Under the pieces are notes generated by a model. It was not told the origin of the DNA. It worked only from the letters and a program-made list of their open reading frames with translations, and made no database searches. A stretch of 38,250 nt of DNA from an uncultured Candidatus Saccharibacteria bacterium (GTDB lineage Bacteria > Patescibacteriota > Minisyncoccia > Phycocordibacterales > GWA1-40-21): the NCBI GenBank assembly GCA_964539415.1, contig CAZIID010000003.1, positions 1 to 38,250 on the forward strand, in the 5' to 3' direction. A program made the position numbers and the translations under genes. This document shows positions 11,297 through 30,684 of this stretch, one piece after another (positions within the stretch are counted from its first letter, which is position 1; each line of letters begins with the position of its first letter).

Positions 11297-13783
11297 CTAA
11301 ATACCGTGACATTTCTTGAACTTCTTCCCACTTCCACAATAACAAAGATCATTTCTACCTATTTTTTCATGGTCTGTTTTTGAGCCGACAACCACATTAG
11401 TGTCTTCCTTTCCTTCTGCTCCAGCTTCTTTCATATATTTCTGAGTATCTTTTAGTTTTTGTTCTTCTTGCACAAAAGCACCAGCACCAATATGTGGCAA
11501 AAGACCTACCACCTGTTCCTTCACGGCTTCCTGCATTTCCTTAAATAATCTGAGTCCGTCTTTTTTATATTCAACAAGCGGGTCTCTTTGTCCGTAAGCT
11601 CTCAAATTTACGCTTGAACGCAAATAGTCCATAACCTCAAGGTGATCAACCCAAAACATATCTACAGCTTGGAGCATTATTATTCTTGCAATTCGGTAAA
11701 ATTCCGCTTCGCCAATCTGTTTTTTCTTTTCTTCAACCCCTTTTATAACTTCTTCATTACCAGAAATTATTTCATCTAATTTTTCTTTTATGTCTGCTAT
11801 ATTTCCAATCAAAACTTTTCTCCTTCTTTCGTAAACAGTTTTTCTTTGGAAGTTTAAAACATCATCATAATCAAGTATATGTTTTCTAGCATCAAAATTA
11901 AAACCTTCTATTTTTGTCTGAGCACTTTCAAGAGATCTTGTGATGAATGAATTTTCTATCGCTTCATCTTCAGGTATTCCAAATCTTCCCATCATCTTTT
12001 TTACTGCATCGTTTGCAAATATCCTCATTAGAGAATCCTCCATTGAAACATAAAACTGAGTCTTACCTGGATCTCCCTGTCTTCCTGCTCTTCCTCGTAG
12101 CTGGTTATCTATTCTTCTTGCTTCATGTCTTTCTGTACCGATAACACAAAGTCCTCCAAGGCCTTTTATCTTCTCATATTCTTCATTATCAAATGGAACT
12201 CCACCAAGTTTTATATCCACACCTCTACCAGCCATGTTTGTCGCAACAGTAACCGCACCAAATTTTCCAGCTTGAGCTACTATCTCTCCTTCTTTCTCAT
12301 GGTTTTTAGCATTTAATACGCAATGAGTAATTCCTTCTCTCTGTAAGTATCCAGAAAGTTCTTCATTTTTCTCAATTGAAACTGTACCTATAAGCACAGG
12401 CTGACCTGTGGCGTTTATTTTTTTTACGTCTCTTGCAAGAGCTTTTAATTTTCCGTGTTCAGTTTGAAATATAAGGTCATTTAAATCACTCCTTGCTATT
12501 GATTTGTTTGTTGGTACAAGCAAAGTGTCTGTATGATAGACTTTCAAAAATTCTTCCGCTGAAGTAAGTGCTGTTCCTGTCATACCAGAAAGCTTCTTAT
12601 ACATTCTAAAATAATTTTGGAATGTAATAGAAGCAAAAGTTCTTGATTCTTTTTGAACCTTTACACCTTCTTTGGACTCTATAGCTTGATGCAAACCTTC
12701 TGACCATCTTCTACCTGGCTGAAGTCTTCCAGTAAATTCATCAACAATGATTATTTCATCTTCCTTTACTACATAATCTTTATTCAATTCAAAAAGCGCC
12801 TTAGCTCTAACAGCGGTTTCTAAATGATGTACGTATTTGATACCACCATCTGTATATATATTTTCAACACCTAAAGATTTTTCTGCTCTGTTTATTCCAG
12901 CATCTGTCAGCTGTATCGCCTTCATCTTTTCATCTACAGTAAAATCTACATCTTTAACAAAATTTCTAACAATTTTTGTGAAGACATCGTAAAGACTTTC
13001 TGAATCTTGAGTTGGAGCAGATATAATAAGAGGCGTTCTTGCTTCATCAATCAAAATAGAGTCAACTTCATCTACAACTGCAAAGTGATAATCTCTTTGT
13101 CTAAGTTTATCAATTTCATATTCAATATTGTCTCGGAGATAATCAAAACCATATTCATTATTTGTTCCGTAAGTTATATCAGCAAGATAAGATTCCTTTC
13201 TTGTACAAGGTCTCAAAAATTCATAAACAATTTTAAAAGATCCCAATTCATCTCTTTTTTCATCTAGTGGATCTTTTTCTGACTGGTGACTTGGATCATA
13301 AAGAAATGAAGACTCATGATTAATTACCCCAACTGACAAGCCTAGAAAAGAATAAATTTGTCCCATCCAAACAGCGTCTCTTCTTGATAAATAGTCGTTA
13401 ACTGTAACTATGTGAACTCCTTTTCCTTCAAGTGCATTTAGATATGCAGGAAGAGTTGCAACAAGAGTTTTTCCTTCTCCAGTTCGCATTTCAGCGATAT
13501 TTCCTCTGTGTAGAATAATTCCACCCATAAGTTGAACGTCAAAATGTCTTTGACCCAAAGTTCTTTTTGAAGCCTCTCTAACGATGGCAAAAGCTTCTGG
13601 TAATATGGAATCAAGAGTTTCTCCTTTTGATATTCTTGTTTTAAATTCTACTGTCTTTGCTCTTACTTCTTCATCTGAAAGTTTAGAAAAAGATTCCTCA
13701 AAAGCATTGATTTGCTTAATCAATGGCTCTAAAGTCTTCATGTATCGGCTCTGTCTGTCTCCAAATATATTGCTTAAAAACAT
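11297..13783 (-). CDS. secA: Preprotein translocase ATPase SecA (start re-assigned to ATG 13783, MFLSNIF)
   Basis: MRTGEGKT, DEVDSILIDEARTPLIIS, TNMAGRG, QLRGRAGRQGDPG, C-terminal SEC-C (CYCGSGKKFKKCH). Confidence 0.97.
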   Translation of the reverse strand: MFLSNIFGDRQSRYMKTLEPLIKQINAFEESFSKLSDEEVRAKTVEFKTRISKGETLDSILPEAFAIVREASKRTLGQRHFDVQLMGGIILHRGNIAEMRTGEGKTLVATLPAYLNALEGKGVHIVTVNDYLSRRDAVWMGQIYSFLGLSVGVINHESSFLYDPSHQSEKDPLDEKRDELGSFKIVYEFLRPCTRKESYLADITYGTNNEYGFDYLRDNIEYEIDKLRQRDYHFAVVDEVDSILIDEARTPLIISAPTQDSESLYDVFTKIVRNFVKDVDFTVDEKMKAIQLTDAGINRAEKSLGVENIYTDGGIKYVHHLETAVRAKALFELNKDYVVKEDEIIIVDEFTGRLQPGRRWSEGLHQAIESKEGVKVQKESRTFASITFQNYFRMYKKLSGMTGTALTSAEEFLKVYHTDTLLVPTNKSIARSDLNDLIFQTEHGKLKALARDVKKINATGQPVLIGTVSIEKNEELSGYLQREGITHCVLNAKNHEKEGEIVAQAGKFGAVTVATNMAGRGVDIKLGGVPFDNEEYEKIKGLGGLCVIGTERHEARRIDNQLRGRAGRQGDPGKTQFYVSMEDSLMRIFANDAVKKMMGRFGIPEDEAIENSFITRSLESAQTKIEGFNFDARKHILDYDDVLNFQRKTVYERRRKVLIGNIADIKEKLDEIISGNEEVIKGVEEKKKQIGEAEFYRIARIIMLQAVDMFWVDHLEVMDYLRSSVNLRAYGQRDPLVEYKKDGLRLFKEMQEAVKEQVVGLLPHIGAGAFVQEEQKLKDTQKYMKEAGAEGKEDTNVVVGSKTDHEKIGRNDLCYCGSGKKFKKCHGI

Positions 13784-13800
13784 AGGGTTATAATAGCACA

Positions 13801-13834
13801 AAAAAGAAAACCGCCAAACGGCGGTTTTCTTTTT
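13801..13834. terminator. Bidirectional intrinsic terminator downstream of the micro-ORF
   Basis: 15-bp perfect IR AAAAAGAAAACCGCC-aaac-GGCGGTTTTCTTTTT. Confidence 0.85.
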
Positions 13835-13847
13835 AAAAGGATTGATA

Positions 13848-13919
13848 TTATCTCTTCTTCTTAGCTACTTTCTTTACAGCTTTCTTAGCTGCCTTCTTTG
13901 CTTTCTTTTTTGCTGCCAT
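13848..13919 (-). CDS. 23-aa Lys/Ala-rich histone-H1-like micropeptide MAAKKKAKKAAKKAVKKVAKKKR (not in ORF track)
   Basis: Hand-translated ATG..TAA; varied synonymous codons; upstream TGC-TAATAT (13996-14004) and downstream terminator. Confidence 0.8.
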   Translation of the reverse strand: MAAKKKAKKAAKKAVKKVAKKKR

Positions 13920-14131
13920 TTTAGTTTTTCTAAAACTTTATTTTAGAAATGAATTATTTTTTTTAAAGCCTAAGACATCTTATCGACTTGCTAAAATATT
14001 AGCACAAGATATCTGACACTTATAATTTTATAACAAGCAGAAAAAAATACAATAGTTTTTTATCATTTTGTTTTAATTTAAAATTAATTTCTAAAAAAAC
14101 TTTTTTCAAAATAAAAATAAAATAAATTTCA

Positions 14132-15151
14132 TTAAACAAATTCAACTTCTTCTTCCAAAAATAATCCAGTTTTTTCTTTTACAATATTTTTTATATATTC
14201 AGAAAATATTTTTATATCAGAAGTTTTTGCTTTGCCATAATTTACTATAACTAATGCTTGTTTTTCGTATACGCCAACATCCCCTTTTCTATAGCCCTTT
14301 AATAGACATATTTTATCTAAAACAAAACCCAAAGGTATCTTTACACGCTCTTCATCTAAATCAAACTTAGGAAGTAACGGAAACTTTTCTAAAAGTTTTT
14401 TGTAATTTTCTTTAGTTAAAATTGGATTTTTAAAAAACGAACCAGCACTTCCAAGATCTTTTATTTCAGGTAATTTATTTTTTCTAAAATCAATTATTTT
14501 ATTTCTGATATCATCAACAGAAAAGTTATCCACAGTTTTATTTGAAAAAATATTTTTTAATTCTGAATATTTTAAATTCGCAAAAAACTTTTTTGATAAT
14601 TTATATGAGGCAGAAAGTACAATTAAAGTTTTTTTATTTTTAAATAAACTATTTCTGTACTCAAAATTGCAATCTTTGTTTGATAAAGAAAAAACAGTAA
14701 AATTTTCTATATCTAAGACTTCAACTTCTTCTATAAAATCTTTTACTTCTGCTCCGTAAGCTCCAATATTCTGTACAGCAGAAGCACCAACAGTTCCTGG
14801 TATATTAGAGAGATTTTCAAGCCCATAGAGTTTATTCTTTATAGAAAAAGAAACAATTTCATCCCAGTTTTCTCCTGCACCACACTTTAATATTGAAAAA
14901 TTATTATCAACTTCAATGATCCCCCTTCCCATCATTTCATTTTTTATAATCAAACCATCAAAACCACCATCAGAAAAAATAGTATTTGAACCTCCGCCTA
15001 AAACAAAAAACTTCAAAGAGTTATCTTTACAAAAAACAACAGCCTCTTTTAATTCATTTAAGTTTTTAATAACACAGAAAAAACGAGCATCCCCGCCCGT
15101 TCTCATTGTGCAAAAATTCGCTAGTCTTACTTTTTCTTTTATATCAAGCAA
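14132..15151 (-). CDS. murB: UDP-N-acetylenolpyruvoylglucosamine reductase
   Basis: GGGSN, GLENLSNIPGTVGA, QNIGAYG, YRNS, SAGSFFKNP; TTG start. Confidence 0.95.
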   Translation of the reverse strand: MLDIKEKVRLANFCTMRTGGDARFFCVIKNLNELKEAVVFCKDNSLKFFVLGGGSNTIFSDGGFDGLIIKNEMMGRGIIEVDNNFSILKCGAGENWDEIVSFSIKNKLYGLENLSNIPGTVGASAVQNIGAYGAEVKDFIEEVEVLDIENFTVFSLSNKDCNFEYRNSLFKNKKTLIVLSASYKLSKKFFANLKYSELKNIFSNKTVDNFSVDDIRNKIIDFRKNKLPEIKDLGSAGSFFKNPILTKENYKKLLEKFPLLPKFDLDEERVKIPLGFVLDKICLLKGYRKGDVGVYEKQALVIVNYGKAKTSDIKIFSEYIKNIVKEKTGLFLEEEVEFV

Positions 15152-15160
15152 GTTATTTAT

Positions 15161-15260
15161 ATTATTCCAACTTATGACCGGCGGGGGCTAACCTCCAAAA
15201 AATGTCTTTATGTGAGTGCAACCGCCGGTCGTAACTTGAAACAATCTTTTCTGAATGAAC
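15161..15260 (-). ncRNA. Putative small RNA or structured leader 'RNA1' (long imperfect hairpin with ~37-nt loop)
   Basis: Arms 15161-15184 / 15222-15245 (core GACCGGCGG/CCGCCGGTC); outer stem has G-U pairs on the minus strand; TGA-TATAGT at 15267-15275; 9-bp IR 15286-15317 over the -35 region. Confidence 0.5.
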
Positions 15261-15367
15261 TTTTATACTATATCATATATTAAAATACATTTCACATAAA
15301 TATTCCATGAAATGTACCCAAAAAAGTAACGAACAAAGTGGAACTTCAATCTATTTCCTTAATTCCA

Positions 15368-15441
15368 GAAACGTAAAGCCCCACCGAAGTGGGGCTACAC
15401 GTAGACATTCGTTAGGGCTAACACATTGCTAGCACTCACAA
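15368..15441 (-). ncRNA. Putative ~70-nt small RNA 'RNA2' (or 14-aa leaderless micro-ORF) with own promoter and UUCG terminator
   Basis: TGA-TATAAT at 15447-15455; 5' hairpin GCUAGCA-AUG-UGUUAGC (G-U on minus); AGCCCCAC-UUCG-GUGGGGCU-UU at 15375-15396. Confidence 0.6.
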
Positions 15442-15475
15442 ACTGTATTATATCACATATAGAAATAAAAGCAAA

Positions 15476-17641
15476 TTATTCGTATTGCAGGGTTTTAGAC
15501 CAAATAGCGTTTATCATTTTCTTTCCTTCAATTTCAAAAGAAGGATTCATTTTTATAGCTTTATTTATTTCCCCTACTGACTGAGACAGTAATCCTTGCT
15601 TATAATAATCCACAGCTCTTACAGTATAAGCTCTTGTTATATTTTCATCAGAAGCTTGTGAAGTATTTATAAGTTCCAAGGCACTTTTCTCATCACCGCT
15701 CATAATAAGCATAGACGCATAAAGAATTTTTGGTTTATCAATACTCTTATCAAGCTCATACACCATCTTCGCTTCGTCTCTAGCTTTTTCTTTTTCTCCC
15801 AAATTTATATAACTCTGTATAAGCTCAAAAGCTATTGTTTGCTTGTTAGGTGAAAGCTCTTTTGCTTTTTCCAAGAAAGGCATCGCTAAGTCTGATCTTC
15901 CGATGTTGTTTAACATTGAACCAGTAAATAATTGATATCTAGCATCATTTGGAGTTTTAAGTATCTGTTCATGCATTTCTTCCAAAGCATAATTTATATA
16001 AGCGAGTTTTGTTTCGTTTGTGACTCCTTTAGAAAAACCAACTTTTTGTGACATGTTGAGCAACTGTTCTCTAATCTCAGGATTTGCAAAAGTTTTATAA
16101 GCTATCGCTTTCTTAAAAGACTCCATGGTCTGCTCTGCTGTTAAGGCAACAACTTTTTTGTCCTTTACGCTATATTCTTGAGCGCTCATAGCTTTTATCA
16201 AAAATGTATTCGCCATGATCGGACGAATATTCACCCACCACAAAGTAAAGCCGAGCATAAGAACAATAATAATAGCTAAAATATTTTTTAAGTCTTCACT
16301 CATTTCAAAATCTTCATATTTTTTTGGGACCTTAATCAAATCTTCTTTTCCATCTGTCTCCGTAAAATATAAATAAGACAAAACAGTAAAGAACAAGAAA
16401 TAACTAACTAGATTGTCAAAAACAAAAAGATTCTGGAAGAAATACGCTGCTAGAAGTCCAACAATTAGTGCTTTCTCAAATACTTCTCTTTTACTTTTCC
16501 AGACAACGTAAAGGCAAGAAATAAATATTGCTAAATACGAAAGCAGTCCAAGTGCTCCACCTGCGACAAGCATATCGAGTGGCATATTGTGCGCCCTATC
16601 AAACCAAGATTCCTGACCATACATTCTTGGATCATAATATTTATTAAATACATAATTAAATCCATCCTGTCCCCATCCTAAAATTGGTTTCTCAATAAAT
16701 CCTTTAATAGCCATTGGCCAAACATATTGTCTGGCTTGACCCTGAAGAGATACGTTACTCCAAGATATCGCAGAAAGTCTATTTAGAGTTGGATTACTCT
16801 TTATCCAGCTCATATCCTTTACCACAAAGAAAGCACCGACAATAAGAATTATTGCTAAAATTTTAATTATTGAAACCCTCTTCATTACAGACTCTTTCTT
16901 TTCCCAGATAGCAGAAATAATAAAGGTTACAAGTATTCCTCCCAAGAAACCTAAAATAACTCCTCTTGTTTGTGTTTTCCAAATACCCCAAAAATTTAAT
17001 AGCGCAATTAAAATGTATGCATAAAATTTCCAATCGCCCAACCATCTTTTTACCATAATCCAAGAACCGATTACATTTTTTTTAATAACATCTTTATATA
17101 GAAGAATCAAAGCAAAGAAAATATTAAAAAGAAAATATACAGCTATATAAATGGCGTTACCAAGTGGACCAGAAATTCTAACAAGTGGGTCTGCAGCTTC
17201 TTTACTAGAAACTACTTTCACTAACATAAAGAGGCTGGCAACAACTGAAGATCTAAAAAACCAAAGCCAGTTTTCTTCACTCTTCATTACAGTTCCAAAA
17301 ACAACAAGATAAGCCCAAAGATGAACAAGTGTGACAAAACCATCCATTCTCTCAAAGTTACTCCAAAGAGCTTTTGTTGGTGCTACAGCAAAAATATCTG
17401 CAAGAAGCATCACTAAAGTAAAAGCAGAAACAGAAATTAAAATCCAAGAAAACTTTGGTCTATACTCTTTATAATTTATAGCCAAAACTAAATATAGTGC
17501 AAAAATAATTTCTACGATTATTCTAAAGGCGAAATTCTTTCCTGTGATATAAGGGAAAAACATACTATTCGCCACAAAAAATGGTATTAGTAGCACCCCC
17601 CAAAGACCTGCAATAATACTGTATTTTAATATTTCTTTCAT
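15476..17641 (-). CDS. O-antigen ligase / O-oligosaccharyltransferase-like (Wzy_C) membrane protein with C-terminal TPR-like repeats
   Basis: Many TM helices; GN..Y, TQTRG, R..W..KPILGWG, DRAHN..LD..G motifs; helical C-terminus. Confidence 0.85.
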   Translation of the reverse strand: MKEILKYSIIAGLWGVLLIPFFVANSMFFPYITGKNFAFRIIVEIIFALYLVLAINYKEYRPKFSWILISVSAFTLVMLLADIFAVAPTKALWSNFERMDGFVTLVHLWAYLVVFGTVMKSEENWLWFFRSSVVASLFMLVKVVSSKEAADPLVRISGPLGNAIYIAVYFLFNIFFALILLYKDVIKKNVIGSWIMVKRWLGDWKFYAYILIALLNFWGIWKTQTRGVILGFLGGILVTFIISAIWEKKESVMKRVSIIKILAIILIVGAFFVVKDMSWIKSNPTLNRLSAISWSNVSLQGQARQYVWPMAIKGFIEKPILGWGQDGFNYVFNKYYDPRMYGQESWFDRAHNMPLDMLVAGGALGLLSYLAIFISCLYVVWKSKREVFEKALIVGLLAAYFFQNLFVFDNLVSYFLFFTVLSYLYFTETDGKEDLIKVPKKYEDFEMSEDLKNILAIIIVLMLGFTLWWVNIRPIMANTFLIKAMSAQEYSVKDKKVVALTAEQTMESFKKAIAYKTFANPEIREQLLNMSQKVGFSKGVTNETKLAYINYALEEMHEQILKTPNDARYQLFTGSMLNNIGRSDLAMPFLEKAKELSPNKQTIAFELIQSYINLGEKEKARDEAKMVYELDKSIDKPKILYASMLIMSGDEKSALELINTSQASDENITRAYTVRAVDYYKQGLLSQSVGEINKAIKMNPSFEIEGKKMINAIWSKTLQYE

Positions 17642-17656
17642 AATAATAATTAATTA

Positions 17657-18736
17657 CTAATAATTTTCTATATACGGCTCTATTAAAAGCGTGTTGGGTT
17701 TCTTTAAAAACCGATTTCTTTTTGCTTTATCGTCAAAAATATATAGAGCATACCCTCCATGCCCACCGCCACAATACTTCTTTGCTTTCTCATTAAAAGT
17801 CGGCAACTTAGACATACCCTCTTTTAGTTGTACTTGATAGGAAATTTTTACAGCCTTACATATTTCATTAAAATTTTTTCCATAAATACCTCCGCATGCT
17901 ATTTTACCAGCTTTTTCTATTTGATCATAATCTCTTTTTAGATCAACATTACTTGGGGTGTTGTGAGTTTTATCTGTCCAAAGAAGAGCCATCTTACCAA
18001 AAAGAAAATCAGGGTTAATCTTTACTTCTAAAACAGGAATTTTCCCACTTCTCCACGCGCATAAACCAGTCTCGACTATAACCGCTGGATCCTGCCAACC
18101 TACTCCAAGATCTAGTTCAGAAGCAATGCAGTCATTTCCACAAAGCAGCGCATACCCCGCTGATCCTCCAAGCCCTGCTCCTTTGTTATATTTCCAATCA
18201 TCAAGTTTTACTTTTGGGGTAATAGTACAGTTTGCGACAAAAGCCCCGTCTCTAGAAAACTTTGGGACGTCTAGCCATCCTCCTGCGAAGTCTATTCTTA
18301 AAGGCACTTCATTTGGAACATTTATTCTTCTACGGATTTCTGTTGTCGAAATCTTTTCAAAAGATAGACTCTTTGGTAACTGGACATATTTTGCACCATA
18401 CTTTTTACAAAACTTAATTTTCTCTTTTGCATGCTTGTCATCTTCGGTAGCAGCAAGAATGTCAGGCTTCATTTTTATAAAAATATCTTTAAAATCAAAA
18501 ATTGGGTCATCAAGATTCTCCCCCATAACAACCTCGTCTACAAAAGAAATAGATTCGAGGAGGTATTTCTTATGCACTTCCGGTAAAGCCGATTTCCTAC
18601 CTTTATATTTTTGCAAGACTACATCGCTAGCAAAAGAAACAATAAGATAATCACCCAAGGCTTTTGCCTGTTTAAAAAACTCTACATGCCCTGCGTGAAG
18701 GATGTCATAGCATCCAGAAACAAAAACTTTTTTCAT
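17657..18736 (-). CDS. Fusion: cytidyltransferase-like (HIGH) nucleotidyltransferase + compact GHMP-type sugar kinase (start re-assigned to 18736, MKKVFV)
   Basis: GCYDILHAGH and ISTT; then PLRIDFAGGWLD, GAGLGGS, GWQDP, KYCGGGHGG. Confidence 0.8.
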   Translation of the reverse strand: MKKVFVSGCYDILHAGHVEFFKQAKALGDYLIVSFASDVVLQKYKGRKSALPEVHKKYLLESISFVDEVVMGENLDDPIFDFKDIFIKMKPDILAATEDDKHAKEKIKFCKKYGAKYVQLPKSLSFEKISTTEIRRRINVPNEVPLRIDFAGGWLDVPKFSRDGAFVANCTITPKVKLDDWKYNKGAGLGGSAGYALLCGNDCIASELDLGVGWQDPAVIVETGLCAWRSGKIPVLEVKINPDFLFGKMALLWTDKTHNTPSNVDLKRDYDQIEKAGKIACGGIYGKNFNEICKAVKISYQVQLKEGMSKLPTFNEKAKKYCGGGHGGYALYIFDDKAKRNRFLKKPNTLLIEPYIENY

Positions 18737-18749
18737 ATTTATTTGACTT

Positions 18750-18800
18750 ATATTACCACAGACAATCAATAGTGGAATAATACTGTGAAAATGGTAATAT
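18750..18800. promoter_or_regulatory. Back-to-back divergent extended -10 promoters (TGGTAATAT on each strand)
   Basis: ATATTACCA 18750-18758 / TGGTAATAT 18792-18800 between divergent genes. Confidence 0.6.
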
Positions 18801-18818
18801 TCTGGCTATAAAACCAAG

Positions 18819-20123
18819 ATGCCCACAATATCACTTAGCTACATAAAAGAAAAGTGGAATCATACTGGATTCCAGAGATATCTCAAAAACACAGGCTGGA
18901 TGTTTTTTGGTAGACTCTTCACTCTCGGTATTTCTTTTTTGGTTGGTATATATATAGCACGTTATCTTGGACCATCAAATTATGGGCTACTTAACTACGT
19001 TATGAGTTTTGTTGGATTGTTTGCTTTCTTAACATCTTTTGGGATAGATAGTATTGTAGGGAGAGAAATAATAAAAGACCATAATAAAAAGGATGAAATA
19101 ATAGGTACTGGATTTTATTTAAAAATAATCGGGAGTATATTAGCTATATTAAGCATATTTATCGTTTCTTTTTTCACGACAAAAGACTTTTTTACCCTAG
19201 GACTTATCTGGATTTTTTCTCTTAATTTTATCCCCTCAGCTTTTAATATAATAGAGATATATTTTCAATCACAAGTACTTTCAAGAAAAGTTGTTACTGC
19301 TCAAGTAATATCAAATATAATATCAGTGACTTTAAAAATTATCTGCATCACCTTTGGAAAAGGAATATTCTGGCTATCGGTTATTTATATAGCAGAAACA
19401 ACAATTTATGCGGTCATACTATTATTCTCATTTAGGAAATTTGGTAACCACATAAAAAGTTGGAAATTTAATACAGAAATTGCAAAATCTCTTTTGAAAG
19501 ACTCTTGGCCACTAATGCTTGCGTCAATTGCTATCGGTATATATATGAAAATAGACCAAGTTATGATAAAAAACATGCTCGGAAACGAACAATCTGGTGT
19601 TTATGCGGTGGCAGTAAAGCTTGCTGAAGCCTGGTATTTTATACCGATGCTGATATGCACTTCCATATCCCCATCTATAATAAATGCATTAAAGATTAGT
19701 AAAGAACTATTCGAAAAAAGACTTAAAAAACTATACTTCGCAATGTTTTGGTTGTCTTTTTCAATAGCTGGTGTAACTACAATTGCGGCCTACCCTGTAA
19801 TTAAAATATTATTTGGCACCCCTTACCTTGGGGCTGTACATACACTACAAATATATGTTTGGGCAGGTATAGGGGTTTCTTTAGGGGTTGCAATGAACCA
19901 ATATATACTCGCCCTAAATTTAACTAAAATTTCTTTTTACACAACGATACTCGGCGCTATCATAAATGTGATACTTAATCTCATTTTAATACCAAAGATA
20001 GGAATTATCGGAGCCGCAATAGCGACGCTAATATCGTACACAACTTCAACGTTAGGCGTTTTTATCTTTAAAAACACAAGGACTCACGGGGTTTTATTTT
20101 TAAAGGCAATCATTAATAAATAA
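18819..20123 (+). CDS. Wzx-type polysaccharide flippase
   Basis: ARYLGPSNYG, KIDQVMI..G.YAVA, NLILIPKIGIIGAAIAT; multi-TM. Confidence 0.9.
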   Translation: MPTISLSYIKEKWNHTGFQRYLKNTGWMFFGRLFTLGISFLVGIYIARYLGPSNYGLLNYVMSFVGLFAFLTSFGIDSIVGREIIKDHNKKDEIIGTGFYLKIIGSILAILSIFIVSFFTTKDFFTLGLIWIFSLNFIPSAFNIIEIYFQSQVLSRKVVTAQVISNIISVTLKIICITFGKGIFWLSVIYIAETTIYAVILLFSFRKFGNHIKSWKFNTEIAKSLLKDSWPLMLASIAIGIYMKIDQVMIKNMLGNEQSGVYAVAVKLAEAWYFIPMLICTSISPSIINALKISKELFEKRLKKLYFAMFWLSFSIAGVTTIAAYPVIKILFGTPYLGAVHTLQIYVWAGIGVSLGVAMNQYILALNLTKISFYTTILGAIINVILNLILIPKIGIIGAAIATLISYTTSTLGVFIFKNTRTHGVLFLKAIINK

Positions 20124-20125
20124 AA

Positions 20126-21985
20126 ATGTGTGGAATCTCTGGAATAATTAAATTTAATAATAAAGTTAGGCACAACGAAATTGAAACTTTTTCAAATTAT
20201 CTTTTTCATCGTGGCCCAAACAGTTCTGGTGTTTGGATAAATAAAAATGAAAATGTTGCACTTGGCCACAGAAGACTTTCGATTTTAGACTTATCAATTT
20301 CTGCATCTCAACCAATGTCTTTTGATGATTATCAAATAGTTTTTAACGGTGAAATTTATAATTTTATTGAAATCAAAAATGAATTAGAAAATTGTGGATT
20401 TAAATTTTCGACAAATTCTGATACAGAGGTGATACTTAAATCTTACAAAAAATGGGGAGACAAAATGCTCGATAAATTCAATGGAATGTGGGCTATTGCA
20501 ATTTACAATGAAAAAAAAGATGAACTTTTTTTATCCAGAGACAGGTTTGGCATTAAGCCACTTTATTATTACTTGAATGAAGATGTATTTATATTCTCTT
20601 CAGAAATACAGGCCATTCATAAATTTTTGGGTAATAATACCCCCCTAAATAGAGAAGTTCTAAAAAACATCGCAAATGGAGATTTTTCCCATCACGGAAC
20701 AGATCAAACGTACCTAGAAAATACGCATTCACTACTTGCCGGGCATAATCTAATCTATAGAAATAAACAAATCATTAAATATCAATGGTACTCAATAAAG
20801 AAGGTAAGCGTTCCAAAAGAATTTGACGAACAAGCAAAAATACTAAGAAATTTAATTTGTGATTCATGTAAATTACGATTAAGAAGTGATGTGCCAGTAG
20901 GTACATGTCTGTCCGGAGGATTAGATAGCAGTAGTATTGTGGGAGTAATTAATAATTATAAACCCGATTACAATTCAAGATTCAACAACTATAAACATCA
21001 TTCTTTCTGTGCGACCTTTAAAGGAACTCCTATAGACGAAAGTACAAAAGCAGAAAAGGTAGCAAAAAAATTTAACTTAGAATTAAACACCATTGATATA
21101 AAAGCACCAACAGAGAAAGAACTTGTAAATTTTTTACTCAAATGTGATGGACCAATGAATTCTCTTGCTTTTTACCCTATAACGAAACTATACGAAAAAA
21201 TTAAAAAAGAAAATATCACGGTTACATTAGATGGACAAGGTCCAGATGAAATGTTGGGAGGATATAGACCACTTTCAGAAGCACTGACAACGGCATTTCA
21301 AAAAAGAAAATTTAAGTGGTTTTGGGACATATACAAGACCTATTCTAATCAGGGAGAAAGTGCGCAATTTAGCGCCAAAAAAAATTCTAGAAAAACTCTA
21401 TTTTTATTTGCATTCCAAAATATGAAAAAAATACTAAAAGATATTCTTGTAAAATTTAAACTTTTAAAAACACATTTTAACGACTACGGCCATCCAATAT
21501 TTATAAAATCAAAGCTAGATATAAGTTTGTACAAACAATTTTTTTTCTCTCCCCTTCCAGGAATATTACAGCAGTATGATAGGTGTTCAATGTCTAATGG
21601 TGTAGAGTGCAGAATGCCATTTATGGACTACAGAATAGTTGAGTTTATATTTTCCTTACCAGAAGAATCAAAAATTGGAAACGGTTATACCAAAAGAGTT
21701 CTCAGGGAAGCAATGAAAGGTATTGTGCCTGATGATACGCGCCTCGATAAACACAAACTTGGTTTTAATGCTCCAATCGTTGATTGGTTTAAGGGAGAAT
21801 TAAAAAACTTCATGCTCAAACAAATGGATACTAAAGAATTTGAAAATTCAGAATTTTTTGACGCAAAAACTATTAAAAAACAATTTAACAAGTTTATTTT
21901 ATCCAAAGAACCACAATGGGATACAGCTTGGAAATTTTGGGGGCCTGTTCACTTAACGTGGTGGCTAAATGAACTAAAAAAATAA
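20126..21985 (+). CDS. asnB: Asparagine synthase (Gln-hydrolysing) family amidotransferase, glycan-cluster type
   Basis: MCGI, HRGP, FNGEIYN, RDRFGIKPLY, LSGGLDSS, GQGPDE, DR..E.RMPF. Confidence 0.92.
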   Translation: MCGISGIIKFNNKVRHNEIETFSNYLFHRGPNSSGVWINKNENVALGHRRLSILDLSISASQPMSFDDYQIVFNGEIYNFIEIKNELENCGFKFSTNSDTEVILKSYKKWGDKMLDKFNGMWAIAIYNEKKDELFLSRDRFGIKPLYYYLNEDVFIFSSEIQAIHKFLGNNTPLNREVLKNIANGDFSHHGTDQTYLENTHSLLAGHNLIYRNKQIIKYQWYSIKKVSVPKEFDEQAKILRNLICDSCKLRLRSDVPVGTCLSGGLDSSSIVGVINNYKPDYNSRFNNYKHHSFCATFKGTPIDESTKAEKVAKKFNLELNTIDIKAPTEKELVNFLLKCDGPMNSLAFYPITKLYEKIKKENITVTLDGQGPDEMLGGYRPLSEALTTAFQKRKFKWFWDIYKTYSNQGESAQFSAKKNSRKTLFLFAFQNMKKILKDILVKFKLLKTHFNDYGHPIFIKSKLDISLYKQFFFSPLPGILQQYDRCSMSNGVECRMPFMDYRIVEFIFSLPEESKIGNGYTKRVLREAMKGIVPDDTRLDKHKLGFNAPIVDWFKGELKNFMLKQMDTKEFENSEFFDAKTIKKQFNKFILSKEPQWDTAWKFWGPVHLTWWLNELKK

Positions 21986-21986
21986 C

Positions 21987-22895
21987 ATGAATTCACCAAT
22001 AGTCCTATTTGTCTATAACAGACCTTATCATACTAAGAAAACACTTGAGGCTCTTAAACACAATATTCTTGCAAAAGAAAGTGAACTTTTTATTTTTGCT
22101 GATGGTCCCAAAAAAAATAAAGAGGATTTAGAAATAAAGCAAGTAAGAGAAATTATTAATAATGTCAGCGGGTTTAAGAAAGTTTATGTAAAAGAGAGTC
22201 CAATCAATTTAGGTTTAGCTCAGTCTATAGTAGGTGGTGTCACTGAAATTTTAAATAGATACAAAAGTATTATTGTCTTGGAGGACGATATAATCACCTC
22301 ACCTTTTTTTCTAAATTACATGAATGAAGCATTAGAAATGTACAAAGAAGATATTGAAGTCATGCATGTTTCCGGATATTTTTTTAAAATTAAAGAAAAA
22401 CTCCCGCAAACTTTTTTTTATAATCAAACGACATGCTGGGGATGGGGCACATGGAGTAGAGCTTGGATTAATCTTAGTATGGATCCAAATTATCTATTAA
22501 GTGAAATAAAAAAAAATAGGCATGGCGAACACAGATTTAATATTGATGGATCAAATGATAGTTTTATTAAACAACTTCAGATGAATATTTCTGGCGAGCT
22601 TAGGACATGGGCAATAAAATGGCAAGCTAGTGTCTTTATTAAAAATGGGCTATGTCTCCATCCAAGATATTCTTATACGACCAATATTGGATTAGATGGT
22701 AGTGGGCAGAATTGTGGTAAGACAAAAAAATTTGATATACCTATCGTAAGTAATTATTCAGAAATAAAAAGAATACCACTTGTAGAATCAAAAGAAGCAC
22801 GGCAGGCAGTTATTAACTATAATAAAAGATACTTTTATATTAATAAGTGCAGATCGTTTATTAAAAAAATAATCAATTTAATAATTAAATTGTAA
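21987..22895 (+). CDS. Glycosyltransferase family 2-like
   Basis: YNRP, IFADG, NLGLA, LEDD, CWGWGTW. Confidence 0.88.
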   Translation: MNSPIVLFVYNRPYHTKKTLEALKHNILAKESELFIFADGPKKNKEDLEIKQVREIINNVSGFKKVYVKESPINLGLAQSIVGGVTEILNRYKSIIVLEDDIITSPFFLNYMNEALEMYKEDIEVMHVSGYFFKIKEKLPQTFFYNQTTCWGWGTWSRAWINLSMDPNYLLSEIKKNRHGEHRFNIDGSNDSFIKQLQMNISGELRTWAIKWQASVFIKNGLCLHPRYSYTTNIGLDGSGQNCGKTKKFDIPIVSNYSEIKRIPLVESKEARQAVINYNKRYFYINKCRSFIKKIINLIIKL

Positions 22896-23636
22896 ATGGA
22901 AAAAAAACTAACAACAATAGAATATTGGGACCAAATTAACAATAATAAAGGTTTTACGCCAGCTGACAAAGACAATCCAATTAGAATATTCATAGAGAAA
23001 CATGTTACACCAAAAAAAGACGGTAAGGTTTTTGAAGTAGGATGTTTTCCAGGTTCATATTTGTCTGTATTTTCTAATCTTGGTTATGAGCTTAATGGTA
23101 TAGATTATTCGTTATTAACTGAATCAAATTTAAATAATTGGTTAGTAGAAAAAAAATACAAAGTTGGACAAATAAAAAGTGGAAACTTCTTCGATGTGCA
23201 ACCGGGAGAACATTATTTTGATGTCGTTTGTTCTTTTGGTTTTATCGAGCATTTTAATGATTATTTATCTGTAATAGAGAAACACGGAAACTTTGTTAAA
23301 TCCGGTGGAAAACTTATTATAACCACTCCAAATTTTAAAGGTAAAATTCAAAAAAAATTTCATACTTTTTTTGACAATGAAAATTTAATCAAGCACAATT
23401 TAGATTCCATGGATCCTTTTCAATGGAGAGTTCACATGGAAAAAAAAGGTTTTGAGACTGAGTTTTGTGGATGGTTTGGAAATTTAGTTTTATGGGTAGA
23501 AAGACAAAAGCGTCCTATTAATAAAAAAATAATATTAAAAATACTTTTTTTTATCTTAAGAATAATTAAAAAAATACAGATACCCAATAATAAGTCATAT
23601 TCTCCTTACTGTGGATTAGTTTTAATAAAAAAATGA
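22896..23636 (+). CDS. Class I SAM-dependent methyltransferase
   Basis: FEVGCFPG, GIDYS, FDVVCSFGFIEH, GGKLIITTPN. Confidence 0.88.
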   Translation: MEKKLTTIEYWDQINNNKGFTPADKDNPIRIFIEKHVTPKKDGKVFEVGCFPGSYLSVFSNLGYELNGIDYSLLTESNLNNWLVEKKYKVGQIKSGNFFDVQPGEHYFDVVCSFGFIEHFNDYLSVIEKHGNFVKSGGKLIITTPNFKGKIQKKFHTFFDNENLIKHNLDSMDPFQWRVHMEKKGFETEFCGWFGNLVLWVERQKRPINKKIILKILFFILRIIKKIQIPNNKSYSPYCGLVLIKK

Positions 23637-24721
23637 AAATACTTCAAGTTAACACTTTTGATAGTGGTGGAGGGGCAGCGAAATTTTGTGTTAGACTCAA
23701 AAAATATTTGGATAACTTTTCGACCAACTGGCTATTAGTAAAAAAAAGTAAAGATGAAAATAATATTCAAATAGGCCCTACACTTACCCAAAAAATTTTA
23801 AACAAACTTTTTAGTTTAGAGGGCGCCGGCCGAAATACTTTTTCATTATTTAAAAAACTACCTTTCTGGAATCAGATAGACCTGATACATTTTCACAATT
23901 TACACGGCGGATTCTTCAATATATGTTCCTTATCAAAACTATCAAAAGAAAAAAAGTGTATATGGACACTCCATGACCCTTGGATTATAAACAATAAGAA
24001 AGAACTAGTACCCGAATATAAAAATATTTTTAAGACAGAGAATTTAATTTTTAATTACTTTAAGACGAAAGCTATAAATGATTCAAATATTATACTTGTC
24101 ACACCTTCAGTATGGCTTAAAGAAAAAGTCCAAATAGAATATCCAAACAAGAAAATTGTAGTGATTAACAATGGTGTAGACATTGAAGTTTTTTCTCCAT
24201 TAGACAAAGAAGAAGCAAGAAATAAACTAGAATTACCCACCGATAAGAAGATAATACTATTCACAGCAAACGGTGGAATAAAAAATACAGAAAAAGGATC
24301 ATCCTATCTAGAGGAGATTGAAAAACAGTATCGTGATGTTTTGGTTATCAAACTTGGAGGCAATGACAAATACATAGAAAACGAAAAAACTTTGGCTTTG
24401 TATTATTCATCTGCTGATCTCCTGCTATTCCCATCTCTCGCAGAGAACTTCCCATTAAGTATACTCGAAGCAATGTCCTGCGGTACACCTGTTGTGGCCT
24501 TTAACACTGGTGGTATTGCAGAAATAATTAATCACAAAATAAATGGATATGTATCGGAGTATAAAAATATTCAAGATTTAATAAATGGAATAAATTTTAT
24601 TTTAGAACAAAAAGATGATAGTCTAAGATATAATGCTAGGAAAAAAATCATGGAGAAATTTGATTCTAATGTAATTTTTAAACAGTATTTAGACTTATAC
24701 AAAGAAACAACAACAAAATGA
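23633..24721 (+). CDS. Glycosyltransferase family 4 (WcaC-like)
   Basis: GGAA, HNLHG, WTLHD, ENFPLSILEAMSCGTPVV. Confidence 0.9.
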   Translation: MKILQVNTFDSGGGAAKFCVRLKKYLDNFSTNWLLVKKSKDENNIQIGPTLTQKILNKLFSLEGAGRNTFSLFKKLPFWNQIDLIHFHNLHGGFFNICSLSKLSKEKKCIWTLHDPWIINNKKELVPEYKNIFKTENLIFNYFKTKAINDSNIILVTPSVWLKEKVQIEYPNKKIVVINNGVDIEVFSPLDKEEARNKLELPTDKKIILFTANGGIKNTEKGSSYLEEIEKQYRDVLVIKLGGNDKYIENEKTLALYYSSADLLLFPSLAENFPLSILEAMSCGTPVVAFNTGGIAEIINHKINGYVSEYKNIQDLINGINFILEQKDDSLRYNARKKIMEKFDSNVIFKQYLDLYKETTTK

Positions 24722-25470
24722 AAATATCAATTATAATGCCTACATATAACTGCGGACAATATATCAAAAAAGCTATTGATAGCGTTTTAAAACAACCTTA
24801 TAACGACAAAGAACTCATTGTTATTGATGGTGGATCAAAAGACGACACGGTCGAAATATTAAAATCATACGGAGATAAGATAGAGTGGGTTTCAGAAAAA
24901 GATAATGGTCAAGCAGATGCAATAAATAAGGGATTTAAAAAAGCCAAAGGAGAAATCGTGACTTGGCTAAACGCAGATGACTATTACGAGCCCGACATCT
25001 TTGAATATGTGGTAAAAGAATTCGAGAAAGATCCACAAGTCGTCCTAGTATACGGAAACTGTAAATCTGTATCTAAATTGAATACTAGTGTAAATATACC
25101 TCCTAAAAATATAACAAGTCGAGATATGATCCAAAAGGGTAACTTTATTTTTCAACCCGCCTCTTTTTATCGCATGGAGACAATTAAAAAAATAAACTAT
25201 CTAAATGACAAATTAAACTTTTGGATGGAATACGAGATGTTTATACAGCTACTAAAAAATGGAAAAGGGTTTTACGTTGATAAATTTTTGGCTAATTTTA
25301 CGTTGAGAGAAGATCAAAAATCAAATTTTAAAAATATAATAGAGATGGATAAAGAATTATATAGCATTAGCCGTAAACATGGTGGAAACCATTTTTCAAA
25401 AATATTTTTTAAAAAAGTATTTAATCAAGCGGTTAATCTTTTTAGACAAAGAAATGAAAAAACTCTTTAA
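24718..25470 (+). CDS. Glycosyltransferase family 2 (WcaE-like)
   Basis: ISIIMPTYN, IDGGSKD, DNGQADAINKG, WLNADD. Confidence 0.9.
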   Translation: MKISIIMPTYNCGQYIKKAIDSVLKQPYNDKELIVIDGGSKDDTVEILKSYGDKIEWVSEKDNGQADAINKGFKKAKGEIVTWLNADDYYEPDIFEYVVKEFEKDPQVVLVYGNCKSVSKLNTSVNIPPKNITSRDMIQKGNFIFQPASFYRMETIKKINYLNDKLNFWMEYEMFIQLLKNGKGFYVDKFLANFTLREDQKSNFKNIIEMDKELYSISRKHGGNHFSKIFFKKVFNQAVNLFRQRNEKTL

Positions 25471-26170
25471 AAAAACCATAAAAATAATACTGTCCCCCTT
25501 TGTAATAAAAGATTATTTATCTTACATAAACAGAGACGATAAAAAGAGATTCTCTATTAAGTTGAGTGACTTTTACCCTTGTGTTAAAGACAAAACTATT
25601 AAAACAAATTTTGATGCACATTACATATATCACACAGCATGGGCAACTAGAAAAGTAAAAGAAATTAACCCTACTATTCACATAGACATTTCTTCTAGTT
25701 TATATTTTTCTAGTATAGTTTCTGCCTTTGTTCCCATTGATTTTTTTGATTATAGACCAGCAGAATTAAATCTTTCTAACCTTAAAAGTAATCACGCAGA
25801 TTTAACAAAACTCCCCTTTCCGAATGATAGTATAAAATCTTTGTCATGTATGCACACAATTGAACATGTTGGACTTGGCAGATATGGAGATACAATTGAT
25901 TCTGATGGTGATCTTAAAGCAATATCAGAACTAAAGAGAGTTTTAGCAAAAGGCGGTTCTTTATTATTTGTGGTGCCCGTCGGGGAACCAAAAATAGAGT
26001 TCAATGCTCATAGAATTTATTCTCACGAACAAATAATGGAATATTTTGGTGATTTAAAATTGAAAGAATTCACTCTCATTACCGACGACGGAAAATTCAT
26101 AGAAAACGCCTCCAAGAATCTAGTTAATAACCAAAAATACGGATGTGGTTGTTTTTGGTTTAAAAAATAA
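25454..26170 (+). CDS. DUF268-like SAM-methyltransferase-fold protein (start re-assigned to ATG 25454)
   Basis: SCMHTIEHVGLGRYGD..D, FNAHRIY. Confidence 0.8.
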   Translation: MKKLFKKTIKIILSPFVIKDYLSYINRDDKKRFSIKLSDFYPCVKDKTIKTNFDAHYIYHTAWATRKVKEINPTIHIDISSSLYFSSIVSAFVPIDFFDYRPAELNLSNLKSNHADLTKLPFPNDSIKSLSCMHTIEHVGLGRYGDTIDSDGDLKAISELKRVLAKGGSLLFVVPVGEPKIEFNAHRIYSHEQIMEYFGDLKLKEFTLITDDGKFIENASKNLVNNQKYGCGCFWFKK

Positions 26171-26174
26171 AAAT

Positions 26175-27023
26175 ATGATAACAGTAAAATTACAGGGAGG
26201 TCTGGGAAATCAAATGTTCCAATATGCTTTTGGAAGAAGTTTATCTATTAAAAAAGGAGAAAATCTGACATTAGATATAAGCAGTTTTAACAACACAGCG
26301 ATTATAGATACCAAAAGAAAATATCTTTTGGATAATTTTAATATTAAACCTCTAATATCTGAAACAGATACTTTTCAATCAATAGACAGATTTTTTTGGA
26401 AAGTTATAAATAATACGGGGTTGCTTTTAAAAAAGGATTTCCACATTCACTACCATTCTTTTTTTAACAAAGTACCTTTAAAAAAATTTGATAGCTATTT
26501 CCAAAGCTATAAATATTTTGAACAGTATCAAGAAGAAATTAGAAAAGATTTCAGTTTAAAAATAGAACTTCCAAAAAAGGCTTTAGAAATATTAAACACA
26601 ATTAAAAATAAAAATTCTGTTTCCCTCCACGTTAGACGTGGCGATTATGTTTCAAATAAAAAGAATGCAAACACTTATGGAAGCTGTTCTTTAGACTATT
26701 ATAGAAATGCTATATCCACAATATGTGGTAAAATTTCTAATCCTGTTTTTTTTGTTTTTTCTGATGATATAGAATGGGTAAAAAATGAATTAATAATAAC
26801 CGCTGAAACAGTATATGTTAGTCAATACTCTTTTGGTGAAGTTGCGGAACTTTTTTTAATGAGTCAATGTAAAAATAACATCATTGCAAATAGCTCTTTT
26901 AGTTGGTGGGGTGCTTGGTTGAACAATGATAAAGATAAAATAGTAATATGTCCAAGAAAATGGACTCTCATTTCAAACTTTGATACGATTGATTTGATCC
27001 CAGATAATTGGATTAAACTTTGA
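26175..27023 (+). CDS. GT11 alpha-1,2-fucosyltransferase-like (start re-assigned to ATG 26175)
   Basis: GGLGNQMFQYA, HVRRGDY, FSDD, IIANSSFSWWGAWL. Confidence 0.9.
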   Translation: MITVKLQGGLGNQMFQYAFGRSLSIKKGENLTLDISSFNNTAIIDTKRKYLLDNFNIKPLISETDTFQSIDRFFWKVINNTGLLLKKDFHIHYHSFFNKVPLKKFDSYFQSYKYFEQYQEEIRKDFSLKIELPKKALEILNTIKNKNSVSLHVRRGDYVSNKKNANTYGSCSLDYYRNAISTICGKISNPVFFVFSDDIEWVKNELIITAETVYVSQYSFGEVAELFLMSQCKNNIIANSSFSWWGAWLNNDKDKIVICPRKWTLISNFDTIDLIPDNWIKL

Positions 27024-27024
27024 G

Positions 27025-28167: not shown

Positions 28168-28170
28168 AAC

Positions 28171-29994: not shown

Positions 29995-30684
29995 ATTAAG
30001 TAGAGCTCTCCATCTAATTTTCAAACCCAAAAGTCTAACTTTAAAGTTTTTTGATTTTGTAATTCCCTCTTTCAGCAATCTGTATTTAATGAGTTTCTCA
30101 GATATATTTTCTGTATTAAATTTTGTCGCTATTCTCGTCCACAGTTCATAATCTTGAGCATATCTAAAAGAAGTGTCATAAAGACCAACCTTCTCAAATA
30201 CGGATTTTCTTATCATCACGCTTGGATGAATAAAAGGATTATGAAATAATATTCCTTTTTTTATCTCACTACCTGTAACAGGTGTATTGTAGTCTCTTAA
30301 ATATTTACCATTCTCATCTATAAATTCTGCCCAAGTGCCACACATTGCGCATTCTGGATTCGCGTCTAAAAAATTAATCTGTTTTAGAAAACGCTCAGGT
30401 AAAGAAATATCATCTGCATCCATTCTTGCAATGTATTCACCATTACTATACCCTATTGCCTCATTTAAAGATTTTGTGAGACCTTTGTTTTGATTATTAA
30501 ATAATCTAATCCTACTATCTTTGTAACTCTCTAATATTTCTCTTGATTTATCAGTAGACCCGTCGTTAATAATAATAAATTCAAAATCAGAAAAAGTCTG
30601 CGATAAAACACTATCAACCGCTTCTTTGACATATCTCTCGCAATTATAGACAGACATTATTACGCTGATTTTCGGACTATTCAT
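29983..30684 (-). CDS. Glycosyltransferase family 2
   Basis: ISVIMSVYN, NDGSTD, ARMDADD, HPSV, QDYELW. Confidence 0.9.
   Translation of the reverse strand: MNSPKISVIMSVYNCERYVKEAVDSVLSQTFSDFEFIIINDGSTDKSREILESYKDSRIRLFNNQNKGLTKSLNEAIGYSNGEYIARMDADDISLPERFLKQINFLDANPECAMCGTWAEFIDENGKYLRDYNTPVTGSEIKKGILFHNPFIHPSVMIRKSVFEKVGLYDTSFRYAQDYELWTRIATKFNTENISEKLIKYRLLKEGITKSKNFKVRLLGLKIRWRALLNLIF

Follow-up and report, generated by a model that had tools for sequence, protein, structure and literature searches.

The murB locus and its two RNA units

The window analysed here is the whole stretch of 38,250 nucleotides (nt) from contig CAZIID010000003.1 of an uncultured Candidatus Saccharibacteria bacterium (assembly GCA_964539415.1). 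On its minus strand, an open reading frame (ORF) of 721 amino acids (15476-17641) is followed by a gap of 320 nt and then by an ORF of 339 amino acids (14132-15151), which is the murB gene. The gap holds two RNA elements, here called unit 1 (~15441-15366) and unit 2 (15247-15160), which correspond to RNA2 and RNA1, respectively, of an earlier, sequence-only reading of the same DNA. Judged by comparative sequence analysis, the two units form a real, class-wide and co-evolving RNA-RNA pair. The upstream gene, which the earlier reading called a ligase, does not encode a DNA ligase; its product matches in Pfam the O-antigen-ligase type (Wzy_C), with tetratricopeptide (TPR) repeats at the C-terminus. 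The start codon of murB is UUG at 15151, 9 nt past the hairpin of unit 2. The features of the locus are the following, in the order of transcription.

15447-15474, minus strand: predicted promoter of unit 1, with the -35 box TTGCTT (15474-15469), a spacer of 16 nt and the extended -10 box TGaTATAAT (15455-15447)
15366-15441, minus strand: unit 1, a predicted small RNA of ~75 nt composed of a 5' seed (site A), a small hairpin, a single-stranded linker with site C and an intrinsic terminator
15432-15440, minus strand: site A (UGUGAGUGC), with the conserved core GUGAGUGC at 15439-15432, complementary to site A'
15417-15433, minus strand: small hairpin of unit 1 with palindromic arms of the GCUAGC type, the 3' arm of which contains motif B (15422-15415)
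15403-15409, minus strand: site C (AAUGUCU), complementary to site C' and located in the unit 1 linker, which is single-stranded
15371-15402, minus strand: predicted intrinsic terminator of unit 1, a GC-rich stem with a UUCG loop, followed by a U-rich tail to ~15366
15267-15295, minus strand: promoter-like site for unit 2 and murB (GTGAAA, 17 nt, TATAGT, with a TG), a match to the consensus only
15160-15247, minus strand: long hairpin of unit 2, with main-stem arms 15245-15222 and 15184-15161 and a structured apical domain of 37 nt; here the putative 5' leader of murB
15211-15219, minus strand: site A' (GCACUCACA) in the apical domain, able to pair with site A in trans or with the GGAG segment in cis (helix P2)
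15201-15207, minus strand: site C' (AGACAUU), located in the apical loop of unit 2 and probably the position at which unit 1 makes its first contact (toehold)
15185-15198, minus strand: GGAGG-UUAGCCC, the 3' strand of P2, Shine-Dalgarno-like and including motif B (15192-15185)
14132-15151, minus strand: murB (UDP-N-acetylenolpyruvoylglucosamine reductase; Pfam FAD_binding_4 and MurB_C), with the N-terminus aligned to that of relatives

The promoter of unit 1 overlaps the stop codon of the Wzy_C/TPR gene (15478-15476). A promoter and terminator scan of the window left it unlisted, its -35 box being weak. Boxes of the TTG...TGCTATACT type are kept in all 17 aligned relatives, and near-consensus forms (TTGACA or TTGCTT ... 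TGCTATACT) are found upstream of the unit 1 seed. The strict pattern TTG...TGnTAnnnT lies 3-11 nt ahead of the seed at 51 of 67 unit 1 loci, as compared to 41 of 1340 random positions (3.1%). A promoter just upstream of the seed places the seed at, or next to, the 5' end of the RNA. The predicted fold of unit 1 has an energy of -33.8 kcal/mol (z -5.25). Its small hairpin has five pairs, shows G-C/G-U and U-A/U-G variation and is longer in two relatives (G012 and G039). The terminator is formed by arms at 15371-15384 and 15389-15402, and the scan lists a terminator-like site at 15396-15377. The terminator stem covaries, for example with C-G and U-A in a ratio of 8:8, and a T-run marks the 3' end of unit 1 at 59 of the 67 loci. 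Alignment of 16 unit 1 sequences revealed that the core GUGAGUGC is invariant, as is a linker of the ACGAAUGUCU type. We read unit 1 as an independently transcribed small RNA of ~75 nt with a sigma-70-type promoter and an intrinsic terminator, with the same moderate confidence that we attach to the explanation as a whole. A second unit 1-like gene on contig C1 of the same genome (62089-62199, 23 bits) was rejected, as it has no promoter and lies inside ORFs.

The main-stem arms of unit 2 are 24 nt long and 83% complementary, with 37 nt between them, and the predicted fold has a z-score of -3.78. Compensatory changes occur in 17 of the 27 predicted pairs of the stem (19 relatives), and the apical domain is nearly invariant in the 19-sequence alignment. 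The promoter-like region at 15267-15295, which the scan does list, is conserved only in one genome of the same genus (G001); in other relatives -10-like boxes lie 8-10 nt ahead of the hairpin. The arrangement around unit 2 varies among relatives. At six loci of genus g4 (L008, L010 and L012-L015) unit 2 has its own intrinsic terminator, followed by a promoter of the TGCTTTAAT type, 60-130 nt after unit 2. This terminator and promoter between unit 2 and murB suggest that unit 2 is a free-standing RNA in that genus. Where the two units are separated by only 2-31 nt (e.g. locus L005, 1600-1640), the conserved 3' part of the terminator of unit 1 (TTTTGCAT or TTTTGCGT) is found ~17 nt before a TATAAT-like box in front of unit 2, and this segment could double as the -35 box of a unit 2 promoter.

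The sequence-only reading had pointed to three short matches between the two RNAs, and all three are present. Sites A and A' (15432-15440 and 15211-15219) are reverse complements in 9 of 9 positions, C and C' (15403-15409 and 15201-15207) in 7 of 7, and motif B is a direct repeat in 8 of 8 (15185-15192 and 15415-15422). The sites follow each other as A-C in one unit and as A'-C' in the other, which results in a crossing geometry. The probability of such matches was examined by shuffling the two stretches, of 45 and 37 nt, 20,000 times with their dinucleotides preserved. Complementary runs of at least 9 nt occurred in 118 shuffles, such a run together with a second one of at least 7 nt in 5, and a direct run of at least 8 nt in 128; all three matches together occurred in none of the 20,000, in agreement with the claim that they exceed chance. 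The lengths reported for A and B hold for this genome and only in part beyond it. Conservation of the 9-nt match at A does not extend past the 8 nt of GUGAGUGC. The 8-nt identity of B is real in this genome, whereas B is not a conserved shared motif, the exact 8-mer being found in 4 of the 16 aligned unit 1 sequences. In unit 1, motif B is the 3' arm of the small hairpin. The identity of B is best seen as a by-product of the similarity between the unit 1 5' end (GAGUGCUAGC) and the 3' strand of P2 (GAGUUAGC).

Conservation and covariation of the RNA pair

In a DNA search of 60 relatives, both units were recovered at 75-92% identity from most members of the family, and also from several further families of the order. 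The intervening spacer is not conserved in these relatives, even within the same genus. To extend the comparison, covariance models were built from the alignments of 16 unit 1 sequences (R1) and 19 unit 2 sequences (R2), both originating from one family. R1 scored 90.6 bits at its own locus and matched 49 of 151 genomes of the class; R2 scored 93.9 bits at its own locus and matched 40 of the 151. When R2 was used on 151 genomes of the phylum, three matches were obtained, all in members of the class. Conservation, which the sequence-only reading had left as a check, was thus found for both units across many families of the class. One genome (G005) carries two copies of unit 1.

Loci identified across the class with both models were paired by genome, which gave 62 pairs of unit 1 and unit 2. 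Site C varies widely among lineages, yet it always fits its partner. Examples of the unit 1 and unit 2 sequences are GAAAAUCU / AGAUUUUC, found in a genome in which the two genes are 1780 nt apart (G081), CUAUUUGUC / GACAAAUAG, ACUAAGUCU / AGACUUAGU and ACUACGUC / GACGUAGU. Members of one genus can also differ: a unit 1 with GAUGUCU rather than GAUAUCU is accompanied by a unit 2 with GGACAUU rather than GGAUAUU, and AAAUGUCU versus AAAAAUGUUU in unit 1 by AGACAUUU versus AAACAUUUUU in unit 2 (genomes G142 versus G171 and G110, and G123 versus G153). The core positions -2 to -5 of site C form Watson-Crick pairs in all 53 distinct combinations, with 2-4 pair types each, in a table of pairs whose register was picked to maximise pairing; this choice weighs against the table, and a permutation test served as its control. 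In this test, 30 non-redundant C segments were compared with their own and with foreign unit 2 loops over 10,000 permutations of the partners. The longest Watson-Crick run was 7.60 for own and 4.92 for foreign loops, and the duplex energy -12.75 and -6.75 kcal/mol, respectively; none of the 10,000 permutations reached the observed value for either measure.

Site A is more constrained, with a single mismatch at positions 1-7 across the 62 genome pairs, and the changes that do occur are matched as well. At position 1 a G-C pair is replaced by A-U: all six unit 1 sequences that start with AUGAG are opposed by CUCAU. A change of U-A to C-G at position 6 is found in three families, and in family f31 a change of A-U to G-C has GUGGGUU opposing AACCCAC. 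When own and foreign partners were compared for the 19 distinct combinations of site A, 1 of 10,000 permutations reached the observed fit; the genomes are related, so that this figure and those for site C overstate the independence of the observations, which again counts against taking them at face value. G-U intermediates are frequent in the pairing of A with A' and of C with C'. Tolerance of G-U, which reads as C-A on the other strand, indicates that pairing occurs at the level of RNA transcribed from the minus strand. The proposal that the two elements are functional RNAs that pair with each other is borne out by these results: compensatory changes, a search for which the earlier reading had suggested, are found at both sites across the class, and they keep the complementarity with G-U tolerated. 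In the genome under study, the calculated duplex energies are -12.1 kcal/mol for C:C' and -16.0 kcal/mol for A:A', the latter as a continuous helix of 8-9 base pairs (bp). RNAcofold, also suggested in the earlier reading, returned no intermolecular pairs in its nested-only model; the two sites cross, so that this result is uninformative.

The pairing does not depend on the arrangement of the genes. At 57 of 61 loci the two units share a strand and unit 1 comes first, and the gap between them is 2-224 nt in 55 of these 57. Complementarity is kept at the four loci where the units are on opposite strands, at two loci where they are 1337-1780 nt apart (including the above-mentioned G081), and in one genome where they are on different contigs (G076). 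In a further genome (G010) the units are likewise on different contigs, an observation that concerns position only. As far as the arrangement of the loci can tell, the pair acts in trans, and linkage is not required.

Site A' also has a potential partner within unit 2. This partner is GAGU..GC in the UUGGAGUUAGC segment of the apical domain, which can form a helix, named P2, with A' (GCACUC). Across 65 distinct apical domains, 80.3% of P2 positions are paired, compared to 21-47% when the partner columns are slid. Cells with a double change number 9, versus 3.7 in shuffles, of which 4 of 500 reach 9. Among these changes, CUC/GAG is replaced by CCC/GGG in two families and GC..GC by GU..AC in another family. 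In family f31 the change is three-way (CCC/GGG/GGG), with unit 1 shifting in step to GUGGGUU. In a partition-function fold, the predicted probability that GGAGG is unpaired increased from 0.39 to 0.69 when A' and C' were blocked, with the main stem of unit 2 unchanged.

Proposed mechanism and alternative explanations

With moderate confidence, we propose that the unit 1 small RNA binds the apical domain of unit 2 through two helices and thereby displaces the GGAG strand, so that the pair would act as a switch in the murB leader. In the window no terminator is found between unit 2 and murB, and the hairpin ends 9 nt before the UUG codon, which makes unit 2 the likely leader of murB in this genome. 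In free unit 2, A' would be held in cis by the GGAG-containing strand of P2. The C linker of unit 1 would first meet the single-stranded apical loop at C', after which the 5' seed A (GUGAGUGC) would form a continuous helix of 8-9 bp with A'; this two-step order of binding is what we infer. Binding of unit 1 would displace and expose the bulged strand of P2, as in a switch based on a toehold and strand displacement. Two routes to an output can be envisaged, i.e. the exposed strand may serve as a Shine-Dalgarno-like standby site, or the duplex may be cut by RNase III, a possible effector that is present. Hfq was not found when sought. The pair probably controls the neighbouring gene; more tentatively, binding may alter the fate of the murB message. 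A variant in which binding unmasks the start region of murB was rejected on the basis of the unchanged prediction for that region given below.

The genes that follow unit 2 are not the same in all relatives. The murB gene lies directly 3' of unit 2 and on the same strand at 38 of 71 loci, with a gap of at most 35 nt in 31 and of 65-162 nt in 7, several of which have an own terminator and a new promoter in the gap. In eight genomes of other families (L050, L055, L058, L059, L073, L078, L083 and L084), genes for DUF5667 signal-peptide proteins take the place of murB and start 1-52 nt after the unit 2 hairpin. A ribosome hibernation factor (HPF) follows unit 2 at four loci; the two proteins that were scanned match Ribosomal_S30AE, and the other two have like starting sequences. 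Other genes found after unit 2 where murB is missing encode Nramp, SecA and an ABC1 kinase, at one locus each. The pair is thus more than a leader of murB. A broader and tentative reading, which we regard as possible rather than probable, is that the two units are a portable two-RNA switch of Paceibacteria-type members of the Candidate Phyla Radiation (CPR). Unit 2 would then be a self-contained hairpin cassette placed immediately ahead of the start codons of genes for the envelope or the state of the ribosome (murB, DUF5667, hibernation factor), and it would be opened via toehold strand displacement by its dedicated small RNA, whose 5' end mimics the GGAG strand of the cassette (both GAGU..UAGC).

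Several observations weigh against the proposed murB leader switch. In the thermodynamic model, the unpaired probability of the murB start region is 0.45 both with and without A' and C' blocked, and the GGAG segment is 43 nt before the start codon, too distant for an ordinary Shine-Dalgarno site. At 29 of the 71 unit 2 loci no murB gene is present in the fetched stretch, at 4 it is adjacent in another orientation, and in some relatives unit 2 is separated from murB by its own terminator and a new promoter. P2 has moderate support: of its six pairs, one is not formed in 25 and another in 32 of the 65 rows. The only match in RNA libraries is a single contig of 154 nt from one metatranscriptome study (15401-15554, 0 differences), which carries no information on ends, strand or level; no contig matched unit 2.

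Some of these observations would fit a small RNA with a decoy, in which unit 1 regulates other mRNAs and is titrated by unit 2, or the reverse, and in which the proximity to murB reflects synteny. We consider this unlikely. Several relatives have a terminator specific to unit 2, murB is not linked to unit 2 at the 29 loci mentioned above, and the near-invariance of the 5' seed GUGAGUG is what would be expected if further targets existed. The invariance of A is, however, also explained by its three-way constraint with the cis strand, and in the own genome no second antisense match to unit 1 of at least 14 nt was found. In addition, the sequence of site C is free to change provided that its match in the partner RNA is kept, which would be unexpected if C recognised mRNAs as well; this freedom speaks for a dedicated one-to-one pair and against a decoy.

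Somewhat more doubtful is a composite leader acting in cis, in which read-through of the terminator would produce a unit 1-unit 2-murB transcript and the A:A' and C:C' contacts would be intramolecular, pseudoknot-type contacts of an attenuator. The prevailing order of the units at 57 of 61 loci and the short gaps between them are compatible with such a leader, and some gaps (2-31 nt) would hardly accommodate a separate promoter. Pairing is kept, however, on opposite strands, over more than a kilobase and on different contigs, as described above. The presence of two unit 1 copies in G005 and of -10-like boxes ahead of unit 2 also argues against a single transcript.

Still less credence is given to a functional RNA made of two pieces, or a ribonucleoprotein, in which both RNAs, once paired, would jointly bind a protein and have a role other than control of the downstream gene. 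The very high conservation of the apical domain, the variation in downstream genes (murB, DUF5667, HPF and others) and the lack of a predicted effect on the start region are in line with this explanation. In contrast, the hairpin abuts or overlaps the start codon in most loci, in view of the murB gaps of at most 35 nt (31 of 38) and the DUF5667 and HPF gaps of 1-52 nt, and no conserved protein gene accompanies the pair. Known housekeeping RNAs are excluded as well. No family of Rfam 15 reached the gathering threshold in the window, in accordance with the earlier view that the two minus-strand elements fall outside the signal recognition particle (SRP), 6S, transfer-messenger (tmRNA), RNase P and riboswitch classes. 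A permissive Rfam scan of 15000-15650 (E up to 10) yielded hits at chance level, the best being mir-2002 with 20.4 bits against a threshold of 49, and an ARAGORN scan for tRNA and tmRNA found nothing in the window. The 6S RNA was rejected, since RF00013 was not found and the shape does not fit, and RNase P RNA was located on contig C9.

Unit 2 as a divergent SRP RNA was rejected, since the Ffh and FtsY domains are missing too. Searches for SRP RNA gave no match to RF00169 in the own genome (0 of 1) or the relatives (0 of 41) and none to RF01854 in the own genome (0 of 1). The own genome yielded no match to the Ffh M domain (PF02978) or the SRP54 GTPase domain (PF00448), and it also lacks FtsY-type domains, in addition to ffh and ffs. 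Among the 41 relatives, PF00448 exceeded the cut-off in one, as an N-terminal fragment of 41 positions (22.8 bits) in a frame of 619 amino acids, and none of 61 genomes of the phylum had an SRP54 GTPase domain over the cut-off. These results agree with a published study that reports the absence of ffh and ffs in Parcubacteria (PMC4508563). The units are also not an undetected tmRNA, as a standard tmRNA occurs elsewhere in five of five well-assembled relatives, two of which have both units. In the own assembly no tmRNA was found with RF00023 or ARAGORN. Its smpB gene lies at a contig end (C30, 59-484), and the missing tmRNA is probably an assembly gap.

An element acting at the DNA level, such as guides resembling those of bridge RNAs, or sites of inverted symmetry for recombination or protein binding, has next to no probability: the bipartite motifs in a loop and the crossing order of A-C and A'-C' recall such a system, whereas G-U pairs, which are C-A on the other strand, are tolerated, the stems covary as RNA, the units are single-copy, syntenic and not mobile, and no recombinase, transposase or Nop-domain protein was found among the 33 ORFs of the window that were scanned (31 plus murB and Wzy_C). 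The last finding agrees with the sequence-only reading. Its suggestion of a bridge-RNA or DNA-guide geometry is not supported, as each motif has its partner in the other RNA and not at a DNA site, with the two co-varying and G-U tolerated.

The surroundings of the locus are as follows. A large glycan cluster adjoins the Wzy_C/TPR gene (15476-17641 and 17657-30684) and includes genes for a flippase, glycosyltransferases of the GT1, GT2, GT4 and GT11 families, methyltransferases and two asparagine-synthase-like proteins. On the other side, murB is separated by a gap of 330 nt (13802-14131) from secA (11297-13801, minus strand). An ORF of 677 amino acids (30677-32710) has a weak match of 33.5 bits to TrwB_AAD_bind, a domain of type IV secretion coupling proteins. 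The spacer between the two units contains a minus-strand ORF of 25 codons (~15349-15272) that is rich in aromatic residues and has AAGGA 6 nt ahead of a TTG start. It was dropped as a candidate, the spacer being unconserved even within the same genus, and is probably due to chance.

Comparison with known RNA pairs and significance

The RNA pair is a new family of a known kind, namely a dedicated base-pairing small RNA that would act on a structured leader. Similar to the proposed action of unit 1, the E. coli small RNAs DsrA, RprA and ArcZ pair in trans with one strand of a helix in the rpoS leader, which frees the strand that bears the Shine-Dalgarno sequence. In rpoS the freed strand is the actual ribosome binding site and adjoins the start codon, whereas here the GGAG segment is located well upstream of the murB start, and the rpoS system requires Hfq, which was not found here. 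Unlike the rpoS regulators, the two units form a one-to-one pair, are genomically adjacent and pair via two separate helices. The use of two short separate helices with a structured 5' leader is shared with the OxyS-fhlA kissing complex, with 8 and 7-13 bp in the pair described here. In fhlA both sites are hairpin loops that flank the ribosome binding site, whereas in unit 2 they are in one apical domain, with one of them inside a cis helix; moreover, the sites of OxyS and fhlA are colinear, as opposed to the crossing topology found here.

Dedicated pairs in which contact starts at a loop and in which the match matters rather than the sequence are also known from plasmids and transposons, i.e. 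CopA/CopT of R1, RNA I/RNA II of ColE1 and RNA-OUT/RNA-IN of IS10. In those pairs both RNAs come from one DNA segment, read on opposite strands, and are fully complementary. In contrast, the genes of unit 1 and unit 2 are separate and mostly on the same strand (57 of 61 loci), with two short sites that are kept complementary by compensatory mutation. Like the bridge RNA of the IS110 family, unit 2 carries bipartite recognition segments in a loop. Unlike the bridge RNA, it has no recombinase nearby, its partner is an RNA, and its loci are conserved, single-copy and chromosomal.

The bacterium is an ultra-small member of the CPR, or Patescibacteria, a group that does not grow in isolation and in which few regulators can be recognised. 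To our knowledge, no small RNA regulator has been characterised in them. We found no description of the RNA pair in the literature, and the passages concerned of a review on Patescibacteria (PMC11665869) do not mention small RNAs. The pair described here co-evolves across dozens of families and lies at a gene for peptidoglycan synthesis, which makes it a concrete system that is easily synthesised. For the study of RNA-RNA covariation between two separate genes, it is moreover a natural data set of unusual clarity. If the tentative reading as a portable switch is true, the pair would give engineered toehold switches a natural counterpart, and a lineage that has very few regulatory proteins its first described RNA regulator.

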